Counted from the stretch's first letter, positions 2,331 to 57,922 are shown. The stretch is DNA of 64,000 nt from Halobacteriovoraceae bacterium (GCA_963719505.1 CAVRCF010000004.1:192001-256000); one strand, 5' to 3'. Program-made: numbers and translations. The notes: a model not told the origin generated them from the letters alone.

Positions 2331-3161
2331 ATGAAACGGATTTTAACTATCAGCACACTTACTTTATTAGCATCATGTGGGAGCTATCAATTGAGCTCAA
2401 TTGATGGAGTTGAGCGGGTAAAAATAAATCAAGATAGCTACTCTAAACCTCAGTTCTACGTAAAAAAGTTCAAGCCAACAAAAGCGAGTCGATCTATTGC
2501 TAGCGTCGATACAGGCCTTTCATTATCTAATAAAAAAGCGTACTTTCTAAGTTTATACAAGCAGTATGAACAATTTAACCAAATAACGAATGTTGAAGAT
2601 AAAATAAATTCATGCCCTCAGTTTCATAATGATCTTCTCACCTATGAAAGTGATTTATCTGGTGAGAACATTTCAAAAATTAATTTGGACTTTAGTGAAG
2701 TACTCATCGATAAAACAGCGGTAACTTCTTATCCAGTTCTCAGTCTTCCGTATGAGGGGACTGACCTCTATTCATATATTCAACACAATAAGGCGTGGAG
2801 TCAGTCAAAACAGATTGCCCTCAGTGCTCTTAAGTCCTATACGAAAGGTATAAAGAGAGAAATAGAGACGATGTGTGAGTTTGGAAATAGCAATGATTAC
2901 TATATTTATGAAAACATGATTTCTTATTATCGAAATAATCAAGACTTTATCTATTCATACCAAGCGTTACCTTCGGTTCTTAAAGTATCGCCAGTGGCAA
3001 ATATTTTTCTATTAGAGTCATTAAAGACCACTCCACAGAGTATTTCTGTTTTTGAGAGTAAATTGATGACCCAAATGAATATTCCTTGGTTTAAAAACTA
3101 CCTTTACGAAGTCAGTTTAATACGAAACAATAAGAGTAAGCGATTCGTATTAAAGGATTAA
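2331..3161 (+). CDS. Hypothetical lipoprotein
   Basis: SD aaggag before ATG 2331; lipobox LLASC. Confidence 0.75.
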   Translation: MKRILTISTLTLLASCGSYQLSSIDGVERVKINQDSYSKPQFYVKKFKPTKASRSIASVDTGLSLSNKKAYFLSLYKQYEQFNQITNVEDKINSCPQFHNDLLTYESDLSGENISKINLDFSEVLIDKTAVTSYPVLSLPYEGTDLYSYIQHNKAWSQSKQIALSALKSYTKGIKREIETMCEFGNSNDYYIYENMISYYRNNQDFIYSYQALPSVLKVSPVANIFLLESLKTTPQSISVFESKLMTQMNIPWFKNYLYEVSLIRNNKSKRFVLKD

Positions 3162-3165
3162 CGTT

Positions 3166-3849
3166 ATGTTTAAATTCTCTACTAATATGGCCATCGTAAT
3201 GATGGCTTTTTTTATTTCTTGTGGTCAGGTGGAAGAGCCTGGTAATTCTAAAGCCGTTGGTGGCATTTATTCTCTTGAAAATAGTGAACCCATCAAAGAT
3301 GCAGAACAAAATCTTATCAAGGAAACTTGTAGCCTGCTAAAAGATAAGAAAAGACAGATGAAGTCCGTTGCAAATAATAACCAAAATAGTTTTCAGTTTA
3401 AAGCCAAAAAAGAAGAATGCTCCAGTGCAGGCTTTGACTTTAATTATGCTGTTACAGTTAGAAATACTGGAAATGGCTTCGCTTTTAACCCTCTAGCAAT
3501 TGGTACCTTTGAAGGTTTTAGAGAAATTATTTTTGATGACTACGAGGGCCTAAATGACTTTTGCATTCAAGCCGATGCGGACTCCTTAAGTGAAAGAGAG
3601 GTCATTAACGGCAAGAACCTAACTTCAATTTCTGCCTCAATTTCAAGTGGTAATAAGTTAATCTCTTTGACCTATGCTAGAAAAGAAAGTGGCGATCTTT
3701 ATCGAGTTAGCTCTAATGAGAGCTTTCTTATCGTTAACGAGTATAAAGGACTCTACGGATTAGTTGTAAGAAGAACGACTTCTGATTCTTTAGGTTGTCA
3801 AAGTGGATCAAGAAAAAAATTCGCCGAATTAGTGGGTATTGATTTTTAA
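3166..3849 (+). CDS. Hypothetical lipoprotein
   Basis: Lipobox FISC; 4 bp after the upstream gene. Confidence 0.7.
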   Translation: MFKFSTNMAIVMMAFFISCGQVEEPGNSKAVGGIYSLENSEPIKDAEQNLIKETCSLLKDKKRQMKSVANNNQNSFQFKAKKEECSSAGFDFNYAVTVRNTGNGFAFNPLAIGTFEGFREIIFDDYEGLNDFCIQADADSLSEREVINGKNLTSISASISSGNKLISLTYARKESGDLYRVSSNESFLIVNEYKGLYGLVVRRTTSDSLGCQSGSRKKFAELVGIDF

Positions 3850-4932
3850 TTCGAAGACATCTCCGAATTCGGCTTTCACTTTATCTTGAATGATTTTAAT
3901 TTCATTAGGATCGAATTTCTCAATACCTTCTAGAGCACCTATCACTGAACCTATGAGCTGGGCATACGAGTCTGTATCGTGACCAAAATCTCTTGCGAGG
4001 GCGAATGCGGCCATGGGGTTGTTATTCTGATAAGCCATTTCTAAAAAAGCCAGACTTACCACAAAACTTGTTTTTGCTTCCCACCAGGTTTTCGCTTGTA
4101 GGTTCTCCTCTAGACTTTTGAAAAGATTTTTGGGCACACCTTTAGATCTTGTTACAAGATCTTCAGCTAGTTTTAAACTTTGAGATATTTCTCTTTCTAG
4201 ATAAGGTATATTTGAATACTGATAGGGATCAGTTTTGCGTAAAGTCTTCTTAAATCCTTCCCATGATGACCTCTCAGATAAAGCGTAGCTAAGTCCAGCA
4301 ATGATGGAACTGGTGTAGTCTTTTGCTACTCCTTGATCGATAAAATTAATTTTATATGAATGTTTGTAAGCGCTAATAGGATCATTGATAAAACTCAATG
4401 CTTCAAAGAGAAAAATCATCTGACCGGCTTGGGTTGGCAATCCTCCCCATAGTCTTTCCAGAGGCATAGATAATGGATGACTGCTATCTTGAATAAACCA
4501 CGCTGATCTCACATATTGATCGAGCCACTGCTTGTACATACCAGTTCTTTTTTTATGGAATGAGATATATGATTTTGCTAAGGAATCTTTTGTCACTTGA
4601 GTCTTTTCTCGCGCATCCCAGTAAATTATTTTATGTCTTGAATCGTCGGTAATTGTTCCGGCTTTTGCATAGTCAACCCAAGCCCCATAGGGTGAGGCTT
4701 TCATAGGATAATCGATGAGTTTTATTGACTCAGATAAATCTTTCCACTGATCAGATGATAACTTTTTATTTGCCGCTATAAGAGGGTGAAGGTTAACGGG
4801 TCTAAACTCATAGGGTCCACCAAAGCTATCACCATATAAAGAGCCCCATATAAGGCCTGTCTCTTTGGAGGATTGAGCGACTAGGTCGCTAGTTGATATC
4901 AATATAGCGCAACTTAGAGTCAGTTTTAGCAT
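3829..4932 (-). CDS. ADP-ribosylglycohydrolase (ARH/DraG) family protein with probable signal peptide
   Basis: Motifs GDSFGGPYEF, GTITDDS and GHDTDSYAQLIGSVIGA; N-terminus MLKLTLSCAILISTSDLVAQ if the start is 4932. Confidence 0.85.
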   Translation of the reverse strand: MLKLTLSCAILISTSDLVAQSSKETGLIWGSLYGDSFGGPYEFRPVNLHPLIAANKKLSSDQWKDLSESIKLIDYPMKASPYGAWVDYAKAGTITDDSRHKIIYWDAREKTQVTKDSLAKSYISFHKKRTGMYKQWLDQYVRSAWFIQDSSHPLSMPLERLWGGLPTQAGQMIFLFEALSFINDPISAYKHSYKINFIDQGVAKDYTSSIIAGLSYALSERSSWEGFKKTLRKTDPYQYSNIPYLEREISQSLKLAEDLVTRSKGVPKNLFKSLEENLQAKTWWEAKTSFVVSLAFLEMAYQNNNPMAAFALARDFGHDTDSYAQLIGSVIGALEGIEKFDPNEIKIIQDKVKAEFGDVFELKINTH

Positions 4933-5827
4933 AAAGCTTAATTTCTTTTTCAAAGGTTTCTCCGTGAAAATATTTAAATCTATGGCCCTTGTATTCAAGC
5001 ATTGTTTCATAGAAGTTTCCTAAATTAATTGTACTTAAGCATTTTACCTCAAAAGATAAATCTTCTTTAGTGGTGCTCAATTTTGATGTCGGTATAAAGA
5101 AGTCGTCCTCTAATAATGCACTATTAAAGAATGAACTAACTTCTTTTGGAATTGGTGAGCTTTGCAGCTCAAAAGGCGAGAAGCTATAGCTGCACTCTTG
5201 ACCTAGAAAGAGTATTTTTTGGCTGTAGGAGAGCGCTTCTTTTAGGTCGTGTGTAATTTGAATACAAATAGTCTTGTATTCTTCAACTAATAATGAAACC
5301 AGAGCATTGAGTTCAAACTTTATCTTTTCATCTAAAGCCGAAAATGGCTCGTCCAAAAGGAGTATCTTTGGCTTTAAGATAAGTGTCCTTGCAAGGGCCA
5401 CTCTTTGCCTTTGTCCACCGGAGAGCTCATGGATCCTTCTTTTTGAAAATCCCTCAAGCCCAACTTTACGAAGAAGTTCAATTGCTTCATTCTTTTGATC
5501 AAGCCCTAAAAATTTTTGTTTATTGTATTTGGTATTTAAAGGGAAAATTATGTTTTCAATAACATTGAGGTGGTCGAAAAGAGAGTCCTCTTGAAACATT
5601 ATTGAAAGAGGTCTTTGCCCAAGGGGATACTGTGAGAGATCTTCCTCACTTAATAAAATTGTTTTTGGATCAGTTTTTAGTTCACCGGAGATAAGCTTTA
5701 AAAGAGTCGTTTTCCCCACACCAGAATGCCCCACGATGGCGCTTCTTTCGCCTTTTTTAAATGACTGTGAAAGATTTGAAAAGAGAGGTTTCTCGTAAGA
5801 GAAGCTAAGATTATTTATCTTTAACAT
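4889..5827 (-). CDS. ABC transporter ATP-binding protein (YnjD/PotA-like)
   Basis: Walker A GHSGVGKT, signature LSGGQRQR, Walker B LLLDEP, H-loop. Confidence 0.95.
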   Translation of the reverse strand: MLKINNLSFSYEKPLFSNLSQSFKKGERSAIVGHSGVGKTTLLKLISGELKTDPKTILLSEEDLSQYPLGQRPLSIMFQEDSLFDHLNVIENIIFPLNTKYNKQKFLGLDQKNEAIELLRKVGLEGFSKRRIHELSGGQRQRVALARTLILKPKILLLDEPFSALDEKIKFELNALVSLLVEEYKTICIQITHDLKEALSYSQKILFLGQECSYSFSPFELQSSPIPKEVSSFFNSALLEDDFFIPTSKLSTTKEDLSFEVKCLSTINLGNFYETMLEYKGHRFKYFHGETFEKEIKLYAKTDSKLRYIDIN

Positions 5828-6575
5828 TTGATCTCCATTTAAATGATTTTTTTAGTAAGAGGTAAAAGATTATCAGCGGCAAAGTGTAGATCGCAATAAT
5901 CATTGTGGTCGTGACTCTATTATCAGATTGCATAAGAGGGTAAAGAATAACGGACAGTGTTTTAATTTGAAAATCTCCAAGGAGAAAGCTAATAATATAG
6001 TCATTAAAACTCCCCACGAAGACAAAAAAAGATCCTTGAATCAATGGCAACATGATCCTTGGAATAGTGACTTTATAAAAAGCTTCAATCTTTGAGGCGC
6101 CAAAGCTTGTGGCCGTAATCTCTGGTTTAAATCCTTCTGATGAAAGATAATCTTCAATAGGCTTGAGCATATAAGGATAGAGAACACAGCACTGGGCCAG
6201 CGCAATCCCATACACACTCCCTATGAGATTCATTTGATACATGAGTTCATAAAGACCTATAGAAGGGAGTAAAAGAGGTGCTAAAATAGGTATATAAAGG
6301 AGAGTTGAAAGAATAAATTTCGTTCTACCTTTTAGCTTCGCTAAAAAAAGAGAAGTGGGAAGACAAAAAAGAATACTAAAAAGAATACAGATAAAAGCAA
6401 TCTGAATTGATGTCACAAAGGAGGAAGTGATCTGGGTAAAATTAATATATTTAAAAGCTTGAGAAAAAGAGATACTTTCTGGAATGATTTTGGGGTACGC
6501 AAGCCTGGGGGTTGATATCCATAGAAAAAGCTGCACAAATAAAAAGAGATATAAAACATTTAAACCCTTTTTCAT
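5811..6575 (-). CDS. ABC transporter permease
   Basis: Six TM segments; EAA-like loop TATSFGAS. Confidence 0.88.
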   Translation of the reverse strand: MKKGLNVLYLFLFVQLFLWISTPRLAYPKIIPESISFSQAFKYINFTQITSSFVTSIQIAFICILFSILFCLPTSLFLAKLKGRTKFILSTLLYIPILAPLLLPSIGLYELMYQMNLIGSVYGIALAQCCVLYPYMLKPIEDYLSSEGFKPEITATSFGASKIEAFYKVTIPRIMLPLIQGSFFVFVGSFNDYIISFLLGDFQIKTLSVILYPLMQSDNRVTTTMIIAIYTLPLIIFYLLLKKSFKWRSNVKDK

Positions 6576-7321
6576 TTAGAATATCTTTTCTTTAGAAGAC
6601 TAGAGAAGAAAATGGAGGTTATAAAAATCAGCAAAACTTGTGCTCCTGATACCAGATTATCTTCTTCGTTTATGCTTTGAAAATTTTCGACAATTGATAC
6701 TGAGGTAAACTTATTGAATCCATTACCAAGCAAAGCGGGAACCTCATAATTGCTAAGTGCAAAGGCGAAGATAATGATTGCTCCAGATACTATTGGACTC
6801 TTCATCATGGGAAGATATATTTTTGTAAACAGCTCTACTTTAGAGCCCCCGAGAGATTTTCCCGTGTGAAGGGCATTCTTTAGCTTCTGAGAGTGGGTAG
6901 AGAGTAAAATAAGGTAAATGAATGGAATTTCTTTGAGAACATAGTTTAAAATGATTCCAATTCCTAATCTGTCATTTAACAACCCCATGGGTGTATTGAA
7001 AACTCTTGATACGATTCCTTCGTCAGAAAAGAAGAGAAAGACTAAGTAGGCAAAAGCTATGTGAGGAAGAAGAACGACAATCTCAAAAATCTTATTTGAC
7101 TTATAATTTCCATAGTAGATGCCGGTAAAAGAGATTACCGAACCTAGTGTTATCGTGATGATAGTACTGATAAGGGAAACTGCGATAGAGAAGCCAATAT
7201 TAGAGTTCTCTACAAAGTTAAAAGTAAGAGACCCTATAAAAGGTGTCAAAAGAGAAGATGTTGCCAGTAGGAACAATCCAAAGGGACTAACAAAGATGGC
7301 CAAAATCTTCAATGCTTTCAT
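6572..7321 (-). CDS. ABC transporter permease (YnjC-like half)
   Basis: PHIAFA and LKEIPF motifs, EAA-like GKSLGGS, YEVPALLG; ATGA overlap with the SBP gene stop. Confidence 0.88.
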   Translation of the reverse strand: MKALKILAIFVSPFGLFLLATSSLLTPFIGSLTFNFVENSNIGFSIAVSLISTIITITLGSVISFTGIYYGNYKSNKIFEIVVLLPHIAFAYLVFLFFSDEGIVSRVFNTPMGLLNDRLGIGIILNYVLKEIPFIYLILLSTHSQKLKNALHTGKSLGGSKVELFTKIYLPMMKSPIVSGAIIIFAFALSNYEVPALLGNGFNKFTSVSIVENFQSINEEDNLVSGAQVLLIFITSIFFSSLLKKRYSK

Positions 7322-8505
7322 TGCGCTAGCACTTTTTGTTTCCACATCTTCTCTATAAAAGGAACGTACAGACTTGGAAGTTCTCCAACTTTTTTATCAC
7401 TTAGTTCTTCAAGGCTTAAGGTCGCTTTTCCAAGTTCAATATTTTCGAAAGTTTTTTTGTCATCTTTTGAGAGCTTTGATGGTGAAAGAATAGTGAAGTC
7501 TCCCCAATTTTTTGGATTGAGTTTACTTGCTTGAGCGGCTGGTGACATAAGGAAATTGGCCGTGACTAGTGCGGCAGACTTTTCAGGTGAGTTAAAGGGA
7601 ATACTTAAAAAATGGGTGTTTGATAGTGAGCCCTCATTGAGAACAAAAGTTTTCGTCTCTTTTGGAAAAACACCTTTGTCCACCATTCGTTGGGCCGTGG
7701 TTGGGTAGTAATCCATTGTTATCCATGTTTTTCCATCCGAAAAAAGAGTATGAAGCTTTGAGACGGACTCTGGATAGTATTCACCCTTCCTATACAGAGA
7801 AGGCTTTATGTCATTGAGAAAAGTCCAAAGAGGTTTTGATTTTAGATTGAATTCTTTTTTATTAAATTCTTTTTGAAGACTTTTGTAATTCTCTTTTGAA
7901 GTTAGATTCATAAACGTTTGCCGAATAAAAGCTGAGCCTGTGAAGTCCGGTGGTGATGAGTAAGTAAAGCGCCCTGGGTTTGAAAGTATCCATTTTTTTA
8001 ATTCATCAATTGATTTTGGTGCTTTATCAACTTTGGATGCATTGTAGATAAAGACCATTTGTGCTGATCCCCAAGGGCTCTCATGACCACCGTGGCGGAC
8101 ACCAAAGTCTAGATTAATGGCATCTGATTTTTCATCAAGTAGTTTTGTATTTGGAAGATCTTTTAAATACGATCTCCATGTAAGACCCTTGTCTTTCATT
8201 GTTTTAAAATTCTCACCATTGACCCATAAAAGATCTATTGATCCTTTCAATCTTTTTCTTTTCTTTTCTTTAAGTAACTTTTGAATCGCTATTTGGGTAT
8301 CTGTTAGAGGTATTCTTTCGATAGAGATATCGTATTTGTCTTTGAGTTGAGTTTTTACATAGGTGTCAAACCAATTATTGATATTCTCATTCCCACCCCA
8401 AAGCGCCACTCTTACTGTTTTTCCTTTTGCTTGAGAGAGATTTTCTTTCCAGTCCAAACCAAGTGCGCTCGTTACCATGAGTATGAAGACGATGATACCT
8501 CTCAT
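7318..8505 (-). CDS. ABC substrate-binding protein, YnjB-like
   Basis: Signal peptide; WGG..NINNW, IDLLWVNGENF, ESPWG.AQ, RFTY..PPDFTGSAF and NTHFLSIPFNS motifs typical of the YnjB family. Confidence 0.88.
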   Translation of the reverse strand: MRGIIVFILMVTSALGLDWKENLSQAKGKTVRVALWGGNENINNWFDTYVKTQLKDKYDISIERIPLTDTQIAIQKLLKEKKRKRLKGSIDLLWVNGENFKTMKDKGLTWRSYLKDLPNTKLLDEKSDAINLDFGVRHGGHESPWGSAQMVFIYNASKVDKAPKSIDELKKWILSNPGRFTYSSPPDFTGSAFIRQTFMNLTSKENYKSLQKEFNKKEFNLKSKPLWTFLNDIKPSLYRKGEYYPESVSKLHTLFSDGKTWITMDYYPTTAQRMVDKGVFPKETKTFVLNEGSLSNTHFLSIPFNSPEKSAALVTANFLMSPAAQASKLNPKNWGDFTILSPSKLSKDDKKTFENIELGKATLSLEELSDKKVGELPSLYVPFIEKMWKQKVLAQ

Positions 8506-9509
8506 TTTTTCTCCCCGAAAAATGCCATAGGATTATCACCCATGATTGTCTCGTATGATCTTTTAAGTAAAGACTCTTTGAATGGCAGATCATCTGCAAG
8601 GGGGAGTTGGGAGACAAACATAATTCTTCTAAAGACTTCCACCGCTGCAAGTTTTAAAGTTAAGTTTTGGTCAAATGGTCCGTAGCTTGTGCAAAGGGCA
8701 TTAAAGACTGTCTCTCCCTGAGAGCACATCTCCAAATGAGCGATAAAAACAGACAGGTCAAATTCCGCGATACCATAAAAAGCAAACTCAGGATCTATAA
8801 CAAAGAGACCTTTTTGAGTTTTTAACCAACTTCGAGGATAGTAGTCTCCGTGAATAAGCGTTTGAGTCTCTCTCCAATAAAGTTCCTTTAATTGTTTGAC
8901 TCTTTTATTCAATTCTTTGTCTTTTTTATAGATCGAGCAGATGTCTTTTAGACCAGGAGTGACTTCATCCAGATTGATAGATGTGTTGAGTTGATCAAAG
9001 GGCAAATCGAAAATATAGTCTGAATTCAATTTTCTCATTTGTGTATTCTTAAACTCGGATTCCCTTGGAATTTTTATCCCATGAAGATCTCGAAGGTAGC
9101 TAATTAATTTTGCAAGATCCTCTTTTGACAGAATTTCCCCTGAATATAAGTTCTCGAAATCAGTGCCCCTTCCAAGATCCGACATGTAGAGAATCAGCTG
9201 GTCTTGATCGAAGCCCAAAATCTTTGGTGAGAAGGTTTGGAGATTTTCGGTTTTATTTATTTGTTGGTAGTACTTCAGCTCACTATTAATTCGCTGTTCA
9301 GGAGCTGGAATACTTGGAAATTTTGCACAATACGGGGGGGACTGTTTCATAATGACGCTTTCGCCATTAGGGCCATTAACGCGAAAAGCGTAGTTCATAT
9401 TTCCCTCGCCCGCACTTTCAAATGAAGTGACTTGGAAGTCACTTCCAGTCGTTTTGTTTAGATGAGACTGGACTTGTTCTAGTGTCCACTTGTTTATGTA
9501 GGTTTTCAT
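8502..9509 (-). CDS. 5-methylthioribose kinase (MtnK)-like phosphotransferase
   Basis: GEGNMNYAFRV, KQSPPY, HGDY and IDPEF motifs; ATGA overlap with the upstream stop. Confidence 0.8.
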   Translation of the reverse strand: MKTYINKWTLEQVQSHLNKTTGSDFQVTSFESAGEGNMNYAFRVNGPNGESVIMKQSPPYCAKFPSIPAPEQRINSELKYYQQINKTENLQTFSPKILGFDQDQLILYMSDLGRGTDFENLYSGEILSKEDLAKLISYLRDLHGIKIPRESEFKNTQMRKLNSDYIFDLPFDQLNTSINLDEVTPGLKDICSIYKKDKELNKRVKQLKELYWRETQTLIHGDYYPRSWLKTQKGLFVIDPEFAFYGIAEFDLSVFIAHLEMCSQGETVFNALCTSYGPFDQNLTLKLAAVEVFRRIMFVSQLPLADDLPFKESLLKRSYETIMGDNPMAFFGEKK

Positions 9510-10231
9510 GGGCAACTCCATTGTTGCTCAATGAGGTTTGTTTTATTTTGAGTGATATTCCATATTTTCGTACAGTAGCTTCCTGCAAAAAAGGCATCTG
9601 GCTTAAAACTCTTTTTGCAATCTACACTCTCTTTTAGCCTGATCGCTTTACTAATGTCTTGGGGATCCAACAGTTCAATATTCCACTTTCCTGACTCGGT
9701 GATACTCATAGAGAAGTCTTTATTCTCAAAGTCACTTGTCAGATACACTTTGGAGTTTTTTATAAAAAGTGGTTGATCCCCATAGGGTAAACTATAGGTC
9801 ATTCCGGTGTCGTGATTTTTAACCTTAGGTAATATGATCGCCGCGCTTTTTGGATCATTTCTTAAAAATAATATTCCTTTGTCGATTTTCTCTTTTGAGG
9901 CTTTGGGGTTGTGAAATTCACATCTAGAATTATATAAAATGGGATCAAGAGTTTTCGATTCACCTTCTTTCACCAAAAACTGCACAGGAAGACCGTACTT
10001 TCTCTTAAAAGCTTTAAGGCTTTTGATATCAGCTTTTGATGAATTCCACGTCAAAATCTTTTTACCATTTTCAGCCGAACAAAAAGAGTTCTCAAGACAG
10101 CCAGGATTTTCGTGAATCAAGTCCATATAGCTCACATCTTTCTTTGTTTTAAGCTTATTTACGTGTTTATCGCTAAAATTTTGGGCACTTAGGGTAGTTA
10201 TCCAGAATGTTAAAAGTAGGAGGAATTTCAT
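9506..10231 (-). CDS. Hypothetical secreted protein
   Basis: Signal peptide MKFLLLLTFWITTLSA; six Cys; first gene of the coupled operon. Confidence 0.75.
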   Translation of the reverse strand: MKFLLLLTFWITTLSAQNFSDKHVNKLKTKKDVSYMDLIHENPGCLENSFCSAENGKKILTWNSSKADIKSLKAFKRKYGLPVQFLVKEGESKTLDPILYNSRCEFHNPKASKEKIDKGILFLRNDPKSAAIILPKVKNHDTGMTYSLPYGDQPLFIKNSKVYLTSDFENKDFSMSITESGKWNIELLDPQDISKAIRLKESVDCKKSFKPDAFFAGSYCTKIWNITQNKTNLIEQQWSCP

Positions 10232-10328
10232 AAAAAAATATTAGCACAAATGTGGGCAATTAATGAACTCAGGCTTTCATATAATTTCATAGACTTCCGT
10301 CAAAAAGGCGCCATATTTTAAGGTGGAT

Positions 10329-10385
10329 ACACTATATATTGTGGTTGTCAGAAAATTGACGATTAAAAACCACAAGATATTGTGT
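10329..10385 (+). promoter_or_regulatory. Tandem NrdR boxes
   Basis: acactatatattgtgg (10329-10344) and ccacaagatattgtgt (10370-10385) match acaCwAtATaTwGtgt, 41 bp apart, upstream of nrdJ. Confidence 0.85.
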
Positions 10386-10464
10386 TGACGTGAGTGAGAA
10401 ACAGGAATTTAATACTAATATATCTTTTCATTAAGTTGGATGACAAAACTAAGGAGTAGTTGCT

Positions 10465-13400
10465 GTGAAGATTAAGAGACTATACACAAAAAAAGGAAAA
10501 AACGCCTACCAAAGCCTCAGCTTTGAAAAACGAGTGAGCGAGGTAAAGAACGTCGATGGTTCTAGTTCAGGGACTCAATCTGTTACTGTCCCTAAGTTTT
10601 GGTCTCAAGTTGCCACTGATATAATTGCTCAAAAATATTTTAGAAGAACTGGCGTCCCTCAAAAAAATGAAAAAGGTGAAGCGATCCTTGATCAAAGTGG
10701 AAACCCTATCTTAGGTGGAGAGACTGATTCAAGAGAAGTCTTTGATAGGCTCTCAGGTTGTTGGAGAACGTGGGGGGAGAATTATAATTATTTCGATTCA
10801 AAAGAAGACGCTGATGCCTTTGAGGATGAGCTTAAATATATGCTTGCCAATCAAATGGCTGCTCCAAACTCACCTCAGTGGTTTAACACGGGTCTTCACT
10901 CATCATACGGGATTAAGGGAAAGCCACAGGGACATCACTTTGTGGATCCAAGTTCTGGAAAAATAGAAAATTCAACTTCAGCCTATGAAAGACCTCAGCC
11001 TCATGCTTGCTTTATTCAATCGATAAATGACGACCTGGTAAACGATGGCGGTATTATGGATCTTTGGAGTAGAGAAGCTAGGCTTTTTAAATTCGGATCT
11101 GGAACGGGAACAAACTTCTCTAATATTCGCTCTGAGGGTGAACCTCTCTCAGGTGGTGGAAGATCATCAGGTCTTATGAGCTTTCTAAAAATTGGTGACA
11201 GAGCTGCTGGTGCGATTAAATCTGGTGGGACTACTAGAAGAGCAGCAAAAATGGTTTGTCTTGATCTCGATCATCCAGACATTGTCGATTTTATCCAGTG
11301 GAAGGTTAAAGAAGAGAGAAAAGTCGCATCACTCGTTACCGGAAGTAAGGTTTGTAAAAAGCATCTGCAGTTGATTTTTAAAGCGATGAATGAGTCTGAA
11401 CTCTCTGGTGATGCAAAATTTTCGGGTAAGACAAATAAAGAACTAGCAATTGCTATTCGAGGTGCAAATAACGATCTGGTTCCGATGAACTATATTTCAC
11501 GATGCATCGATTTGGCCAAGCAGGGATTTAGTGATATTGAATTTGAAGTTTACGATACAGATTGGAATTCTGAGGCTTATGCAACAGTAGCTGGTCAAAA
11601 CTCTAACAACTCCATAAGAATACCAAACAAATTTTTTAAGGCCCTTGAGACCGAAGACGAGTGGGAATTCATCTCAAGAACAACCGGTAAGACTGTAAAG
11701 ACTCTAAAAGCAACTGAGCTTTGGGAGATGATTAGTGAATCAGCTTGGCAATGTGCTGACCCAGGAGTTCAATTTGACGATACAATTAATGAATGGCACA
11801 CGTGTCCAGCAGATGGAAGAATAAACGCTTCTAACCCTTGTTCTGAATATATGTTTTTAGATGATACAGCCTGCAACTTAGCTTCACTAAACCTGGTGAA
11901 GTTTATGGATCCTGTGACGAACATGTTTGATATCGAAAGCTATATCCATGCCTGTGAAGTGTGGACGATGGTGCTTGAGATATCTGTTCTTATGGCCCAG
12001 TTTCCATCGAAAGAGATCGCATTGAGATCTTTTCAGTACAGAACACTTGGACTAGGTTTTGCTAACATCGGTGCTCTTCTTATGTTGATGGGCCACGCCT
12101 ACGATTCTGAAGAAGGAAGAAATATTGCGGCAAGTTTGACGGCCATAATGGGGGGAACAACTTATAAGGTTTCTGCTATGATGGCCAAAGAGCATGGAGC
12201 CTTTGAAAGGTTTGATGCTAACAAAGAGCATATGCTTAGGGTTATTAAAAATCATAGAAGAGCTGTATACGCAGCAACAGATTATGAAGGTCTTACTATC
12301 AATCCTGTACCACTTGATAAAAAACACGCTCCAAAATTTATGTTGGAAGCTGCTAAAAAACAGTGGGACGAGGCTTTAAAACTTGGTGAAAAACACGGTT
12401 ATAGAAATGCTCAGACTACAGTTATAGCTCCAACAGGAACAATTGGTCTGGTCATGGATTGTGATACCACTGGTATTGAGCCTGACTTTGCTTTGGTTAA
12501 GTTTAAAAAATTAGCAGGGGGAGGGTATTTTAAAATTATCAACCAATCAGTTCCTCCGGCACTTAAAAATCTTGGTTATACGAAAGATCAAATTAAAGAT
12601 ATTGAAAACTTTGCTGTTGGTCACGCAACAATGGTTGGATGCCCAACAATTGATCATAAAAAGCTCAGAGACGCGGGGTTTACTGATGAGATTATTTCCA
12701 AAGTAGAGAACTCCCTAGAGTCGGCATTTGATATTACTTTTGCTTTTTCAAGGTATACCGTGGGAGATGACTTTCTTTTGAAAACTCTTAAACTTCCCAT
12801 TGAAAAGGTAGAGAGTTTTGAATTAAATATCCTCAAAGAAGCTGGCTTTTCCGACAACGATATTAAAGTGGCCAATGACTATGTCTGCGGAACAATGACA
12901 GTTGAAGGGGCTCCTCATCTTGAAGATAAGCATTTATCTGTTTTTGATTGTGCTAATAAGTGTGGAAGAACAGGGAAAAGATTAATAGCAGCTTCAGGAC
13001 ATATTAGAATGATGGCCGCATGTCAGCCTTATCTTTCCGGTGCAATCTCAAAAACGATCAATATGCCAAATGATGCAAGTATTGAAGATATCTCTGAAGC
13101 TTATAAACTTTCTTGGTCTTTAATGACAAAAGCTAATGCCATTTACAGAGATGGCTCAAAACTATCTCAACCACTAAATGCTCAAGCTTTTGAAGACTTG
13201 GGCTTAATGGAATCTTTTGATGATTTATCTCAAAATGAAAAGGTAACCACAGTTGCACAGAAGCTAGTGGAGAAAGTCATTTACAAAGAGATTTCTAAGC
13301 GAAGATCTCTTCCAAATAGAAGAATTGGCTATACGCAAAAGGCAAGCGTAGGTGGACACAAAGTTTATCTTAGAACTGGCCAATATGACGATGGCTCTTT

Positions 13401-13959
13401 AGGTGAGATTTTTATCGATATGCATAAGGAGGGTGCTGCTTATCGTTCACTAATGAACTGCTTTTCGATAGCGGTTTCTTTAGGGATGCAATATGGAGTT
13501 CCTCTTGAAGAGTATGTAGAGGCATTTACTTTCACAAAATTTGAACCAAATGGAATGGTTGTGGGCCACGATAATTTAAAAATGGCCACATCCGTAATAG
13601 ACTACGTCTTTAGAGATCTTGCTTGCAAGTATTTAGGTCGACACGATCTTGTCCATGTAAAACCCACAGATCTTGAAAGCGATAAAATCTCTGGAGAGTC
13701 AAAGGATGATGAGCCTCTACTTGCCATGATTGAAGGTGAAACTTCCGTTGAACATGCTGATGGAAGCCGAGTGAGTACGCAAAAGGTTTTTTCAAGACAA
13801 GCAGACTCAGAGATGTTTTCACAAGCAAAAAAAATGAGTGAAGCTAAAATGAAAGGCTATGAAGGCGAATCTTGCCCAGAGTGCACCTCATTTACAATGT
13901 TAAGAAATGGAAGCTGTATGAAATGTGACACATGCGGAGCAACGACCGGATGCTCATAG
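10465..13959 (+). CDS. nrdJ: Vitamin B12-dependent (class II) ribonucleotide reductase
   Basis: [61 protein letters not shown] domain and C-terminal Zn ribbon; SD aaggag before GTG. Confidence 0.97.
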
Positions 13960-15235: not shown

Positions 15236-15310
15236 TTTTGCTCCTTAAAATTTTTGAATGATAATACTAGAATGGTAGACTTAATGTGGCAAAGAAAAAA
15301 TGAGGAGTTT

Positions 15311-15946
15311 ATGGAAGCAAAATTTTGGTTAAATAAATGGGATAAAAAAGAGATTGGTTTTCATTATAGCGAGCCAAACCCTCTGTTGATCGACCATTTT
15401 AAAAAGCTTGGGATAGATGAGGGTGACAAGATACTTTTGCCCTTATGCGGCAAGACCGCAGATCTCCTCTGGCTAATGAAGCAAAATGTTTCTGTCTTTG
15501 GAGTGGAGCTCTCAGAGACGGCCATTAAAGAATTCTTTATTGAAAACGAGCTTCAATATCAAACTGAAAACGATAAAGGTTTCACCGTCTACTTTGGTGA
15601 GAATATTAGAATTTATCATGGTGACTTTTTCACATTTCATAACGAAATAAATTTAAAATTTAAAGCGATCTATGATCGAGCTTCCTTAGTCGCTTTACCT
15701 GAAAAAATGCGACTCAACTATTTTAGAGAAATAAAAAAACTTTTGGAAGATAAGGGACACTATTTCCTTATAAGTTTTGAGTATGATCAAGAGGCAATGT
15801 CTGGACCCCCTTTTTGTGTTGATAAAAATGAAGTTGTAAGAAACCTTGATTTTAAACTTTTAGAAGAAGAAAGATCTCTCAATAAACAGATGAGCCAAAG
15901 AACAAAGACAGATTTTCTTACCTGTTACTACCTCTTTGAAAAGTAG
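15311..15946 (+). CDS. tpm: Thiopurine S-methyltransferase
   Basis: FW..KW....IGFH, PLCGKTAD, GVELSE, YDRASLVALP, GPPF; SD gaggag. Confidence 0.92.
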   Translation: MEAKFWLNKWDKKEIGFHYSEPNPLLIDHFKKLGIDEGDKILLPLCGKTADLLWLMKQNVSVFGVELSETAIKEFFIENELQYQTENDKGFTVYFGENIRIYHGDFFTFHNEINLKFKAIYDRASLVALPEKMRLNYFREIKKLLEDKGHYFLISFEYDQEAMSGPPFCVDKNEVVRNLDFKLLEEERSLNKQMSQRTKTDFLTCYYLFEK

Positions 15947-52889: not shown

Positions 52890-53782
52890 ATATGGCCTAT
52901 AATAACTTCGATTCTTATATTGAAGGAGGGAGTACGCTGAAACCTTTGTTCACGAGGAAACTCTAAAACAGGACTTGCTGTCCAGAAAAACCATTCTTTG
53001 TAGAGGAGTTGTCGGTAGCCAATAGAGAGAATATAGTTGTTAACAGCTTGTGAAGGAGTGTTGGAGCTTGCAGCCCTGGCATTGTAGCTGAGAGCCGTTT
53101 TATCATTAACTTTTTGAAAGAGACTTGGTCCATTACTAAATTCAAAAATATAGTCTTGGTCATTCCATTTTGTAAAATTCGCAAATCGAAAAAGATAATC
53201 ATCAGAGATTCTATAGTCAAAATCCAGGTCTAGTCGACTCACGGTTCCTTCAGTGTCGATCCAAAGGGTTTCACTCTCTGGTCTAAAAAGCCAGTTGCCA
53301 AAAGTTATATTTTGTTTCATACGAAGGCGAATAAAGGGAAGAGGTCTGACCTCTCTAAAAATGATTCCAGAGCCTAAACTTGATTTAAACTCTGTTTTGT
53401 CGAGAAAGAATTGAAGCCCTGCTTTTGTATCATTTCTTTGATCTAGCCTATTGTTTCGGCTCGTTTGATCAGCGATTTCATTCTCATCTAGTTTTTCATC
53501 TCTACTTTCTAAAATGAGCTGCAAAGACTTCTCAGTGCCGGGAAAATTGAGTTGAACCTTTACGTCACCAGTTGTGTGTGGCTTTTTTGCTTCTCTAAAA
53601 ATTGTATCTGTATAAAGTCTTACTCTGGACTTATTTTCATAGTTTAAAGCAGTGTCATCGGCGAAGAACCTATCGATGGAGGTGGCGAAGGTTTCTATAT
53701 TTTTAGAAAGCACTTCGTGGGTTTCATCGGATATATTGGCGTGAGCGGTTAGGGTGAGTAAAAAAAAAACGATAAATTGCAT
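52886..53782 (-). CDS. Hypothetical outer-membrane beta-barrel protein
   Basis: Signal peptide; IDRFF, LNFPGTE and YRQ...KEWFF..SP...FPRE pattern; amphipathic strands. Confidence 0.75.
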   Translation of the reverse strand: MQFIVFFLLTLTAHANISDETHEVLSKNIETFATSIDRFFADDTALNYENKSRVRLYTDTIFREAKKPHTTGDVKVQLNFPGTEKSLQLILESRDEKLDENEIADQTSRNNRLDQRNDTKAGLQFFLDKTEFKSSLGSGIIFREVRPLPFIRLRMKQNITFGNWLFRPESETLWIDTEGTVSRLDLDFDYRISDDYLFRFANFTKWNDQDYIFEFSNGPSLFQKVNDKTALSYNARAASSNTPSQAVNNYILSIGYRQLLYKEWFFWTASPVLEFPREQRFQRTPSFNIRIEVIIGHI

Positions 53783-54741
53783 CAGTACTTTGACCATCTT
53801 TCAACAATATCATCAAGATGATTTGGCTGCATTTTGTAACAATAGTTTCCTCGCCAAGGTGTATCCATTTTATAACTAGCGACAAGGAAATCTTTGTATT
53901 TCTTTCTATATTTTTTCCTAAATAATGATGAGGTTTCATTTTTTAAGTAAGCTAAAGCTATGGGAATATCTTTGTCACATTCCATCTCATGGGGATGGGT
54001 TAGATAGGTGACAATAAAGACATCCCAAGGAATAAAGCCTTTAGAATTTGGAAAAAACTTCCAGATCCATCGCCATACGATGGAGTTTCTTGCCATCCAC
54101 TTAGAAAGAGGGCCACCTTTTTTCATTTGTTTGAGGTGGCTTTTTGTGACAAATGCCTCTTTCATTATTTCAACTGGGAGCATTGTTATTTTGACTCCCG
54201 ACTCCATCACAAATTTTAAGGATTCTAGATCATCATCAACATTCGTATCTGGCATGATGACCTGTTGGCGTCCCACGCGAGTTTGGGTTTCAAGTCTTCG
54301 ACCAGCGTTAATGATAATTTCAGAAATTTGTGGTTTTAGTTCAGGATAGTTCTTTATCAAAGACGCCATATTGGTTAGTCTGCCCATGGCCATTATTTTG
54401 AGAGGATTCTTCTTGAGGGCCTTTGCTAAAGCTTCAGTGGCATCAGTTTTTTCATATCTTTTGGACTTTAACCAGGCTCCATAAAAATAGGGAATATCGG
54501 TTTTATTCGTTCGTTTTAAAATTCTTCGGGTGGCTTTTGCCATGAAGTTTAAGTTTTTTAAATTACCAAAGCCAAGGCTTATGCCTTGAACCTCAAGGTC
54601 GGGGCTTTTGAGGGCCGTAATCAACGCCAGGCCATCATCTACATCTCGAATGACTTTGCCAAAAGCCACGTCATAGTCGACCCAAACTTTCTCAGCTGAA
54701 AATGTACAAAATGAGAATATAAGGAGGAATATTGATTTCAT
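53782..54741 (-). CDS. Nucleoside hydrolase (IU-NH family) with signal peptide
   Basis: D.D.......DVDDGLA, G.LTN, PWDVF; N-terminus MKSIFLLIFSFCTFSA. Confidence 0.85.
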   Translation of the reverse strand: MKSIFLLIFSFCTFSAEKVWVDYDVAFGKVIRDVDDGLALITALKSPDLEVQGISLGFGNLKNLNFMAKATRRILKRTNKTDIPYFYGAWLKSKRYEKTDATEALAKALKKNPLKIMAMGRLTNMASLIKNYPELKPQISEIIINAGRRLETQTRVGRQQVIMPDTNVDDDLESLKFVMESGVKITMLPVEIMKEAFVTKSHLKQMKKGGPLSKWMARNSIVWRWIWKFFPNSKGFIPWDVFIVTYLTHPHEMECDKDIPIALAYLKNETSSLFRKKYRKKYKDFLVASYKMDTPWRGNYCYKMQPNHLDDIVERWSKY

Positions 54742-54794
54742 AAGATCCATTCTTTAAGTAAGTGTGTAATAATCGTAATATATACATACTTATA

Positions 54795-56652: not shown

Positions 56653-57922
56653 TTAAAGATCTAAGATCATTCTTAGAGGATCTTCAAGAAGATCTTTTAC
56701 CGTTTTCAAAAAGCCCACAGAATCTTTACCATCGATAACTCTATGATCATAAGACAGAGCAATATACATAATTGGTCTGATCTTAATTTCTCCGTTCACA
56801 ACCCAAGGTCTCTCGACAATATTATGCATTCCAAAAATCGCTGATTGAGGGATATTGATGATTGGAGTTGAGAGCATGGATCCAAAGACACCACCATTAG
56901 TGATCGTAAAAGTTCCACCTGTCATTTCATCAATGGTAATCTTTCCGTCACGAGCTTTACCAGCAAGTCTTTTAATTTCTTTTTCAATTTGGGCAAGCCT
57001 CAAGTTTTCTGCATTTCTAACAACAGGAACAACGAGACCTTTTTCACTTGAAACAGCGATTCCCATATCGACATATTGAGGGATATGAAGGTTTTCACCA
57101 TCGATCTGTGCATTAACAAGGGGATGGTTCTTCATGGCAATCGTACAAGCTTTTGTAAATAGAGACATAAAGCCCAATTTAATTCCGTGATTTTTTACAA
57201 ACTCATCTTGGTATTTTTTTCTCATATCCATCAGTGGCTTCATATCGACTTCATTAAAAGTTGTAAGCATCGCTGTTGAGTTTTTGGCTTCAGTAAGCTT
57301 TGTAGCAATCGTTTTTCTAAGACGAGACATTTTTCTCGATATTAATTTCTCTTGAATCCTGCAACCATTGGAGATGCAGTAGCTCTGAAGATTTACTTTG
57401 GAAGGAGCAGTCTTGTTTAGCGTTCAGTGCATCTTCTTTTGTTATTCGTCCATCTTTTCCAGAACCTTTTAGAGAGCTAGCATCAATACCTTTTTCGCTA
57501 AGAATTTTATTTGCCGCTGGTGAGGCGTGATGAACAGTCTTACTTGGAGATTGTGTTCCAACGTCTGGAATCATTGATTCTCTTGGCTCATTGCCTTTGT
57601 TCTCAGGGTTTGGTTTCGGTGGACTAGGTTTGTCATCAGTAGACTTTGATGACGTTTCTTCTTTTGAACTTGAACCAGATGGCTTTTCGCCTTCTTCTAA
57701 TATCGCGATAACAGTCCCGACGGCAACCGTTTCGCCTTCTTCAACTTTGATTCTTAAAATTCCTGAACCATCAGCTGGAAGCTCCATAGTTGCTTTATCA
57801 GTTTCTAGTTCACAGACAATATCACCTGTCTCAACAAAGTCACCATCTTCTTTTAACCAAGCGGCGAGTATACTTCTGTTACAGATTCACCAGATTGACG
57901 GTACTTTAATTTCAATGGCCAT
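56653..57922 (-). pseudogene. sucB: Dihydrolipoyl succinyltransferase E2, frameshifted in this sequence
   Basis: MAIEIKVP start at 57922; lipoyl motif ETDKAT; E3-binding GSGKDGRITKED; catalytic SYDHRVIDG; frame breaks near 57870-57895 and 57330-57400. Confidence 0.9.

Follow-up and report, generated by a model that had tools for sequence, protein, structure and literature searches.

An accessory gene cluster for an ARH-fold hydrolase with predicted export, a YnjB-type ABC importer and an MtnK-like kinase in a Halobacteriovoraceae bacterium: a probable route for the salvage of ribose derivatives

Gene organization of the locus

A stretch of 64,000 nucleotides from the genome of a Halobacteriovoraceae bacterium (GCA_963719505.1 CAVRCF010000004.1:192001-256000), which was analysed at its full length and is referred to here as the window, carries seven consecutive open reading frames (ORFs) on the minus strand (3829-10231), which according to the ORF listing of the window overlap their neighbours by 4 to 65 nt. 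They encode a small secreted protein, a sugar kinase resembling 5-methylthioribose kinase (MtnK), an ATP-binding cassette (ABC) importer with a substrate-binding protein (SBP) of the YnjB type, and an ADP-ribosylglycohydrolase (ARH) with a signal-like N-terminus. The chaining of these genes by stop/start overlaps (9506/9509, 8502/8505, 7318/7321, 6572/6575, 5811/5827 and 4889/4932), which had been noted in the original prediction made from this DNA, was confirmed throughout. The six genes from 9521 to 3829 most likely form an accessory operon for the salvage of an external ribose derivative. The features of the locus are the following:

9506..10231, minus strand: secreted, cysteine-rich protein (241 aa) whose family is undescribed; begins the transcription unit and has a signal-like N-terminal segment
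8502..9521, minus strand: MtnK-like APH-fold kinase, 339 aa; start at ATG 9521 or ATG 9509; PF01636 43.9 bits, TIGR01767 122.8 bits
7318..8505, minus strand: YnjB-type periplasmic SBP, 395 aa; NF008633/PRK11622 447.4 bits (cut-off 203)
6572..7345, minus strand: ABC permease 1, 257 aa; start at GTG 7345 or ATG 7321; PF00528 39.9 bits
5811..6575, minus strand: ABC permease 2, 254 aa; PF00528 29 bits
4889..5827, minus strand: ABC ATPase; PF00005 123 bits; nearest NCBIfam models of the PotA, ThiQ and CysA types, all under cut-off
3829..4953, minus strand: predicted exported ARH-fold glycohydrolase; start at TTG 4953 or ATG 4932 within the open frame 3829-5010; PF03747 48.5 bits
10232..10464, no strand: divergent intergenic region between the operon and a gene for class II ribonucleotide reductase (RNR), presumed to hold the operon promoter

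A minus-strand site at 10446-10417 resembles a promoter, with 10 of 12 positions matching. The scan for promoters and terminators is uninformative, with 22 promoter-like sites found versus 20.2 expected from shuffled sequences, and an Rfam scan of 3000-11500 (E ≤ 1) revealed neither a riboswitch, for S-adenosylmethionine (SAM) or another ligand, nor any other RNA.

A clade of MtnK-like kinases

The best NCBIfam match of the kinase is MTRK (TIGR01767), and its score of 122.8 bits is well under the cut-off of 275, so that the enzyme does not qualify as an MtnK equivalog; a relative from the same clade (locus L048) scores 131.4 bits, also below 275. Database searches place the kinase in a distinct clade of about 80 proteins (320–365 aa, about 335 aa), which are 35–66% identical to it, whereas true MtnKs (about 400–420 aa) are only about 29% identical and the window kinase is about 60 aa shorter. 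A profile built from 19 clade members nevertheless finds MtnK from Bacillus subtilis (2olc; E = 7e-30) and MTK from Arabidopsis (2pyw) as the best relatives in the Protein Data Bank (PDB). The GxGNxN loop, HGD and IDPEF, which we take to be the motifs that define the MtnK family (IDPEF being of the DxE type), align with both structures and are invariant in the clade alignment. From this homology the kinase is predicted to phosphorylate the anomeric C1 of a sugar.

In a scan of one genome per species at least 596 records were found to contain a relative of the kinase, and the best-scoring 80 of these at least 596 matches, which are therefore not a random sample, were retrieved together with as much as 10 kb of flanking sequence per side. 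The ORFs of the 80 loci were called and clustered, and the clusters were labelled by Pfam and NCBIfam; 63 of the 80 loci, with at least 3 kb on both sides, form the well-flanked subset. Among proteins of 595–2000 aa there was no kinase fusion at E ≤ 1e-20, which is weak evidence. Two loci of the Bacteriovoracaceae type lacking an adjacent hydrolase gene (L005:9429-9989 and L090:10543-11139) encode, directly before the kinase, a protein of 186–198 aa that matches an asparaginase N-terminal domain only; in L090 a DUF2608/HAD-like phosphatase gene follows the kinase.

Ribosyl hydrolases beside the kinase

A ribosyl hydrolase is encoded within 400 nt of the kinase gene in 58 of the 80 loci, mostly by the next gene on the same strand, and an adjacent hydrolase is likewise present in 46 of the 63 well-flanked loci. 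The adjacent enzyme is an ARH in 28 cases and an inosine-uridine nucleoside hydrolase (IUNH, PF01156) in 30. Two unrelated folds that both cut ribofuranosides at C1 thus occupy the same position beside a homolog of C1 kinases, which points to a two-step module in which a riboside would be converted to a ribose derivative and this to the 1-phosphate. To judge from gene context, the interchange of ARH and IUNH beside the kinase is the strongest evidence for such a module. For the same reason, namely that both enzyme types hold one position, the ADP-ribosyl substrate that had been proposed for the ARH is unlikely. The clade, with at least 596 genome records annotated just as "phosphotransferase" or wrongly as 5-methylthioribose (MTR) kinase, hereby gains a conserved partner and a testable role.

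The ARH of the window matches PF03747 with 48.5 bits (cut-off 26.2) over profile positions 1–284 of 287; a search of PDB sequences gave no match. The TDD and DTD motifs reported earlier are present (GTITDDSRHK and GHDTDSY), their D/T positions are invariant in an alignment of three sequences, and the protein also carries GDSFGGPYEF; these acidic and threonine motifs presumably form a binuclear metal site. If translation begins at TTG 4953, which has GGAG 5 nt upstream, the protein has the signal-like N-terminus MKKKLSFMLKLTLSCAILISTSDLVAQ/SS, whose hydrophobic core and AQ site are conserved in two aligned homologs. Export was judged by eye together with a heuristic based on hydropathy and motifs. 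By this heuristic, 58 of the 72 homologs in the ARH subfamily of the window are Sec- or Tat-like (29 each), 5 start at the domain and 9 are unclassified, which bears out the signal-like segment described before. Among the kinase-adjacent ARHs, 27 of 28 begin in the manner of Sec substrates or lipoproteins, with a segment that typically ends in Cys. Predicted export is thus a trait of the ARH family, and export via Tat would fit a folded, metal-loaded enzyme. The 30 kinase-adjacent IUNHs are more mixed: 14 are Sec-like, 4 Tat-like, 8 have no N-terminal extension and 4 are unclear. It should be noted that 7 of the 8 IUNHs without an extension are from loci with a YnjB-type importer. Enzymes of the ARH fold that have Sec, lipoprotein or Tat signals and stand in the position of a nucleoside hydrolase widen this family beyond cytoplasmic de-ADP-ribosylation.

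A second ribosyl hydrolase with a Sec-like signal is encoded in the window at 53782-54750 (minus strand), 44 kb from the operon. It is an IUNH (PF01156, 91 bits) that shares 44% identity with the IUNH encoded immediately after the kinase in the relative G033. In locus L074 an ORF of 579 aa adjoining the kinase (L074:2919-4658, plus strand) connects the cluster of IUNH with that of DUF547 and may thus be a fusion of the two.

The YnjB-type importer

The SBP is 36% identical to YnjB from Escherichia coli, which RefSeq calls a putative binding protein. Its AlphaFold2 (AF2) model (pLDDT 90.9) is nearest to cluster-D SBPs with a TM score of about 0.6, the neighbours being PhnS-like, PotD, FutA, TbpA and AfuA structures; in this fold search only distant cluster-D proteins with diverse ligands were found, from which no ligand can be inferred, and a search of PDB sequences gave no match. 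The permeases and the ATPase are nearest to the Mod, Cys, Wtp, Phn, Pot and Thi models.

With the kinase as the starting point, genes for a YnjB-type SBP, an ATPase and two permeases lie immediately upstream in 8 of the 80 loci. With the SBP as the starting point, 11 genomes from an even draw of 251 Bacteroidota contain NF008633; four contigs in these end near the genes. In 7 of the 11 genomes the gene next after the ABC genes codes for a nucleoside-cleaving enzyme (IUNH in 2, a member of the PNP_UDP_1 superfamily in 5), and an APH-fold kinase also follows in 5 of the 11, two being of the clade and three of a sister clade whose members match the window kinase only at about 1e-13. Several of these Bacteroidota loci also carry genes for DUF2064, a TonB-dependent receptor and an uncharacterised radical SAM protein. 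In 7 of 8 Bacteroidota importer loci the hydrolase is cytoplasmic by its N-terminus, and therefore the importer there probably carries an intact riboside rather than the free sugar.

The importers of the E. coli type are different. Seven such loci from metagenomes, four of them near-identical, have neither a hydrolase nor a kinase gene nearby; their SBPs are 37–39% identical to that of the window and their permease is a fused protein of 562 aa. The fused permease is found in E. coli (YnjC) and in loci L100-L104, whereas the window has two separate permease genes, and the ynj locus of E. coli (RefSeq) contains no kinase or hydrolase gene. The expected linkage of YnjB to kinase and hydrolase genes thus holds for the Bacteroidota (hydrolase 7/11, kinase 5/11) and fails for the E. 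coli-type loci (0/7) and for E. coli itself. Likewise, the substrate class that had been envisaged for the YnjB family can be suggested for a subgroup of the Bacteroidota/Bdellovibrionota type, not yet for the family at large. The gene ynjB does not appear in the title or abstract of the literature mentioning it, and its substrate is unannotated even in E. coli; YnjB-type importers here get their first consistent genomic context.

The uncharacterised radical SAM family (about 300–340 aa) is encoded directly after the YnjB-type ABC genes or after the kinase in L126, L127, L132, L024, L031, L035, L041, L052 and L076. That the radical SAM protein beside the Bacteroidota importers could be ArsS was considered and rejected, TIGR04167 not being among its matches.

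An accessory island and its flanks

The order of the seven genes recurs identically, with the same flanks, on the metagenome contig L099, whose SBP is 77% identical to that of the window; the arrangement is therefore not due to chance. In the same-genus genome G001 the gene for class II RNR lies 264 nt from a homolog of window ORF 3166-3849, the seven genes are absent and the further flank is syntenic, which makes this an empty site. The operon forms an island of accessory genes. Of 61 genomes in the lineage, 5 were found to have the kinase, that of the window included, and three same-genus genomes (82–90% complete) gave none. Neither direct nor inverted repeats were found to flank the 6.4-kb island, so that there is no sign of a mobile element, and all four key genes are single-copy in the genome to which the window belongs.

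The first gene of the unit had been counted among the functional parts of the system, which it probably is not. The family of the 241-aa protein (192 cluster representatives at E ≤ 1e-3) has seven invariant cysteines and is absent from all 80 kinase loci, and in G033 a homolog adjoins the RNR gene without the operon. For these two reasons the protein is treated here as a mere neighbour, probably co-transcribed and not part of the mechanism. It has no match in Pfam, NCBIfam or Atlas, 50 members of its family have none in Pfam, and it shows no similarity to the 243-aa protein encoded upstream of the kinase in G033. Its AF2 model (pLDDT 94.8) found no match among PDB structures (best E in Foldseek 0.06, none at E ≤ 0.001; best Z in VIA-align 3.5), and the protein may, to judge from this model, represent a new fold.

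The island sits between ORF 3166-3849 and the RNR gene (10465-13959, plus strand), which is divergent from the operon and codes for a class II, B12-dependent enzyme of 1164 aa with a TSCPD domain (NF005736, 1906 bits). About 5 kb from the operon a gene of the thiopurine S-methyltransferase family is found (15254-15946, plus strand; PF05724, 189 bits); it is syntenic in L099 and therefore lies outside the island. Methylation of selenium and tellurium species is known for bacterial enzymes of this kind. Elsewhere in the window, at 56653-57787 on the minus strand, a 2-oxoacid dehydrogenase E2 is split over two overlapping ORFs of 156 aa (E3-binding domain) and 225 aa (catalytic domain), which may reflect a frameshift.

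Neighbours named for arsenosugar biosynthesis

The genes that recur around the kinase-hydrolase pair belong in part to the set that NCBIfam names for arsenosugar biosynthesis. For example, in L045 from a member of the Flavobacteriaceae the kinase and a lipoprotein ARH are encoded beside a rhodanese (NF045521, 192 bits), TIGR04282 (215 bits), a purine nucleoside phosphorylase (PNP), ArsM (NF038099, 561 bits) and the family 2 glycosyltransferase (GT2) TIGR04283 (232 bits), the five scores being all over cut-off; L059 and L061 are similar. In L091 from the relative G035 the order is metallophosphoesterase, kinase, TIGR04283-like GT2, ArsM-like methyltransferase and radical SAM protein, and in L092 from G040, also a relative, the kinase gene diverges from one for a fusion of TIGR04282 with TIGR04283. 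At least one of TIGR04283, DUF2064, ArsM, DUF547 or rhodanese occurs in 22 of the 63 well-flanked loci. In several loci DUF547 is also paired with a TIGR04283-like GT2.

Among the 251 Bacteroidota genomes TIGR04283 is present in 126, ArsS in 88 and both in 70. The 56 genomes that have TIGR04283 without ArsS indicate that in many cases the transferase must do without de novo chemistry by ArsS. TIGR04283 was found in 15 and ArsS in 2 of the 19 genomes with kinase or SBP, as compared with 111 and 86 of the other 232 (nominal Fisher p 0.015 and 0.023, which are only suggestive because relatedness is ignored), and ArsS is absent from all 11 SBP genomes (nominal p 0.009, again ignoring relatedness). 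These figures fit a scheme in which the transferases are supplied either de novo, via ArsM and ArsS with a clustered PNP that could make the sugar-1-phosphate, or by salvage, via uptake, hydrolase and kinase; by analogy, the two modes would parallel MtnP versus MtnN plus MtnK. In the lineage of the window organism 25 of 61 relatives have GT2, as do 4 of the 5 kinase genomes, numbers too small to count for much.

The genome of the window organism (83.5% complete) has no ArsS, the best TIGR04167 match reaching 30.2 bits versus a cut-off of 300. It does have a TIGR04283-like GT2 (C5:521601-522260; score under the cut-off of that model), which is 52% identical to the GT2 in the cluster of kinase, ArsM-like and radical SAM genes of G035 and which adjoins DUF547 (C5:522321-522971) and a fragment of a pyridine nucleotide-disulphide oxidoreductase. 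With this GT2 and without ArsS the genome fits the salvage class.

ArsS is described as the adenosylating step in an excerpt of PMC12159101, and a nucleosidase step appears in an excerpt of PMC10456119 as a proposal only. In the openly readable literature that was searched, no enzyme was found to be described for the steps after ArsS or the proposed nucleosidase. The overlap with the arsenosugar genes and the complementary distribution of ArsS suggest candidate enzymes for these post-ArsS steps.

Proposed mechanism and alternative explanations

The chances appear to us evenly divided as to whether the operon salvages a 5-substituted ribose by means of exported hydrolase, YnjB-type importer and anomeric kinase. 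The exported ARH-fold hydrolase would act in the periplasm and cut the glycosidic bond at C1 of a ribosylated compound, the ABC importer would bring into the cytoplasm either the sugar so released or the intact riboside, and the kinase, as homology to MtnK and the conserved motifs suggest, would phosphorylate the sugar at the anomeric C1. A cell has need of such a kinase only where C5 is not open to phosphorylation, and the sugar is thus most likely a 5-substituted ribose. The sugar-1-phosphate would then be activated and transferred, as in AmgK/MurU salvage with its anomeric kinase; this is the likely fate because the recurrent neighbours are the CofC-like DUF2064/TIGR04282 and the GT2 TIGR04283, not MtnA. 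In Bacteroidota the exported hydrolase, again by the heuristic, goes with a TonB-dependent receptor and the cytoplasmic IUNH with SusC/SusD plus the ABC system. Exported hydrolase and importer are thus alternatives there, and the order of the steps in the window organism is uncertain. The original prediction had linked hydrolase, importer and kinase in the same way; of its logic the pairing of kinase and hydrolase stands (58 of 80 loci) and so does the export of the ARH, by the heuristic, while the ADP-ribosyl substrate is unlikely and the family-wide link to YnjB does not hold.

Gene context points to an arsenosugar-type 5-deoxy-5-dimethylarsinoyl group, or a related group from a 5'-modified adenosine, as the boldest candidate for the 5-substituent. 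It is possible, and put forward here tentatively, that the kinase clade together with an exported ARH or IUNH salvages 5-deoxy-5-dimethylarsinoyl-ribose from environmental or prey ribosides, with YnjB-type importers or TonB-dependent receptors in some lineages, and delivers the 1-phosphate to TIGR04282/TIGR04283 transferases, replacing de novo ArsM/ArsS where ArsS is lacking. If this were true, the missing post-ArsS enzymes would be named (nucleosidase and kinase, or PNP), YnjB-type importers would gain a first substrate class, and non-photosynthetic bacteria, a probable predator included, would take up organoarsenic sugars. For the cycling of arsenic in Bacteroidota of marine and fresh waters the suggested route could be important.

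Several observations weigh against these proposals. An adjacent hydrolase is missing from 22 of the 80 loci, and exported hydrolase and ABC importer were found together only in the window and in L099, among the architectures seen. The structural neighbours of the SBP bind polyamines, iron, phosphonate, thiamine or sugar phosphates, and none binds a riboside. The "arsenosugar biosynthesis" names of TIGR04282 and TIGR04283 reflect the inference of curators, and for that of the glycosyltransferase no experiment could be traced. TIGR04283 is common in Bacteroidota (126 of 251), its association with the kinase alone (8 of 10 genomes) is weak (nominal p 0.10), and the Fisher tests take no account of relatedness. 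In the genome of the window organism, at its 83.5% completeness, the GT2 scores 136 bits and is thus below the TIGR04283 cut-off of 182, DUF2064/TIGR04282 was not found (no PF09837 match), and tblastn with two ArsM-type queries found no ArsM-like gene.

It is doubtful that the operon scavenges MTR or 5-deoxyribose, for example from 5'-methylthioadenosine (MTA) or 5'-deoxyadenosine of prey, and passes MTR-1-phosphate to an unlinked MtnA for methionine salvage. The nearest characterised relatives of the kinase are indeed MtnKs, and the genome of the window organism encodes MtnP (304 bits) and MtnA (361 bits), both over cut-off, ARD/MtnD and an MtnB-like Aldolase_II protein. MtnN was not found in this search of the genome for mtn genes, so that an external route for MTR would plug into an existing pathway, and imported MTR could be used by the organism. 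The closest relative with the kinase, G033, also has an IF-2B homolog. However, it is the only one among 18 other kinase-bearing genomes, 17 being without an IF-2B/MtnA homolog (E ≤ 1e-10), so that MtnA is not the downstream step of the kinase family. The absence of mtnA from the window, as noted originally, was confirmed, its gene lying elsewhere in the genome, and no mtn or IF-2B gene is present in any locus examined. Besides, the kinase falls short of MTRK in score (122.8 vs 275) and by about 60 aa in length, no SAM or other riboswitch lies upstream, and MTA made by the cell itself is already covered by MtnP. The MtnB-like gene (C5:273330-273891), which lies by the ARD gene, matches the Aldolase_II profile in two pieces, in frames of 154 and 70 aa; this could be due to a frameshift or a sequencing error.

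It is unlikely that plain ribose or nucleosides are the target, as they are for the ribose-utilization systems (RUS) of the Bacteroidetes, with ribose freed by the hydrolase and taken up by the importer and the kinase replacing ribokinase. In published RUS loci SusC/D and a permease occur together with ribokinases and with exported enzymes, either nucleoside hydrolases or ADP-ribosylglycohydrolases, as far as an excerpt of the preprint tells (bioRxiv 10.1101/574913), and SusC/SusD or TonB-dependent receptors are found in several kinase loci. Yet the kinase is of the APH fold and MtnK-like rather than a PfkB ribokinase, unsubstituted ribose has no known need of C1 phosphorylation, and the neighbours DUF2064, TIGR04283 and ArsM are not catabolic. 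Quite unlikely, too, is a non-ribose ligand of the importer, such as an oxyanion or organoarsenical, a phosphonate, a polyamine or thiamine, with hydrolase and kinase acting on a separate intermediate in cytoplasm or periplasm. The nearest models of the permeases and the ATPase and the nearest structures of the SBP, as named above, would agree with such ligands, an uncharacterised radical SAM gene often follows the Bacteroidota importer, and the absence of ArsS from the 11 SBP genomes would likewise be in keeping with an importer that brings in the precursor of an ArsS-like step. Those matches are distant, however (12–17% identity and below every NCBIfam cut-off), and a nucleoside-cleaving enzyme directly after the ABC genes in 7 of 11 genomes, with a cytoplasmic IUNH in SBP loci, best fits import of a riboside. 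Finally, the exported ARH might remove ADP-ribose from proteins or cleave free ADP-ribose or compounds derived from NAD, the operon salvaging their breakdown products. The hydrolase belongs to Pfam ADP_ribosyl_GH, and loci of the Algoriphagus type have nicotinamidase-like and NAPRTase genes a few kb away on the other strand; but these NAD genes are confined to one closely related group of loci, IUNHs, which act on simple N-ribosides, hold the same position in 30 loci, and ADP-ribose, with its 5'-phosphate ester, would have no use for an MtnK-like kinase, which makes this explanation highly improbable.

Comparison with known systems

Of the published systems the RUS come closest: their design is shared, with two parts, the kinase and the importer, swapped. 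As in the RUS, to the extent that these are described in the preprint excerpt (bioRxiv 10.1101/574913), exported ribose-liberating hydrolases, an importer and a sugar kinase are clustered, often with SusC/SusD, and the enzymes vary between genomes; the RUS, however, have PfkB ribokinases and the permease RusT, whereas an APH-fold, MtnK-like kinase and a YnjB-type ABC system or a TonB-dependent receptor are found here. A Pfam scan of the seven operon genes found no PfkB, RusT or SusC/SusD domain. Also unlike the RUS, the recurrent neighbours (DUF2064/TIGR04282, TIGR04283 and ArsM) look biosynthetic rather than catabolic.

With YnjBCD from E. coli the importer shares an SBP that is 36% identical and passes NF008633, and an ATPase and permeases of the same type. 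It differs in that YnjC is a fused permease and in that the neighbours in E. coli are YnjA (AhpD-like), YnjE (a sulfurtransferase) and YnjF.

In methionine salvage via MtnN and MtnK, and in the salvage of 5-deoxyribose via DrdK (dihydroxyacetone phosphate shunt), a nucleosidase is followed by an APH-fold C1 kinase acting on a 5-substituted ribose. The succession of nucleosidase and APH-fold kinase is the same here, and the G-loop, HGD and the DxE-type IDPEF are shared. The kinase is, however, below the MTRK cut-off and shorter, the hydrolase is an ARH or IUNH with predicted export instead of the cytoplasmic MtnN, and neither MtnA/DrdI nor an aldolase is linked.

The salvage of cell-wall sugars via AmgK and MurU bypasses de novo synthesis in that an APH-fold anomeric kinase forms a sugar-1-phosphate, from which a nucleotidyltransferase makes the NDP-sugar. 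The sugar is a different one, and the nucleotidyltransferase-like partner here would be DUF2064, which was not found in the genome of the window organism.

The NCBIfam arsenosugar set (ArsS TIGR04167, ArsM NF038099, TIGR04282, TIGR04283 and the rhodanese NF045521) adjoins the kinase-hydrolase pair in L045, L059, L061, L091 and L092, and the predicted substrate of the kinase would be the ribose that is left once adenine leaves the ArsS product. Genomes with kinase or SBP are mostly without ArsS (2 of 19 have it), and the hydrolases here are exported by their signals, which fits salvage better than biosynthesis in the cytoplasm.

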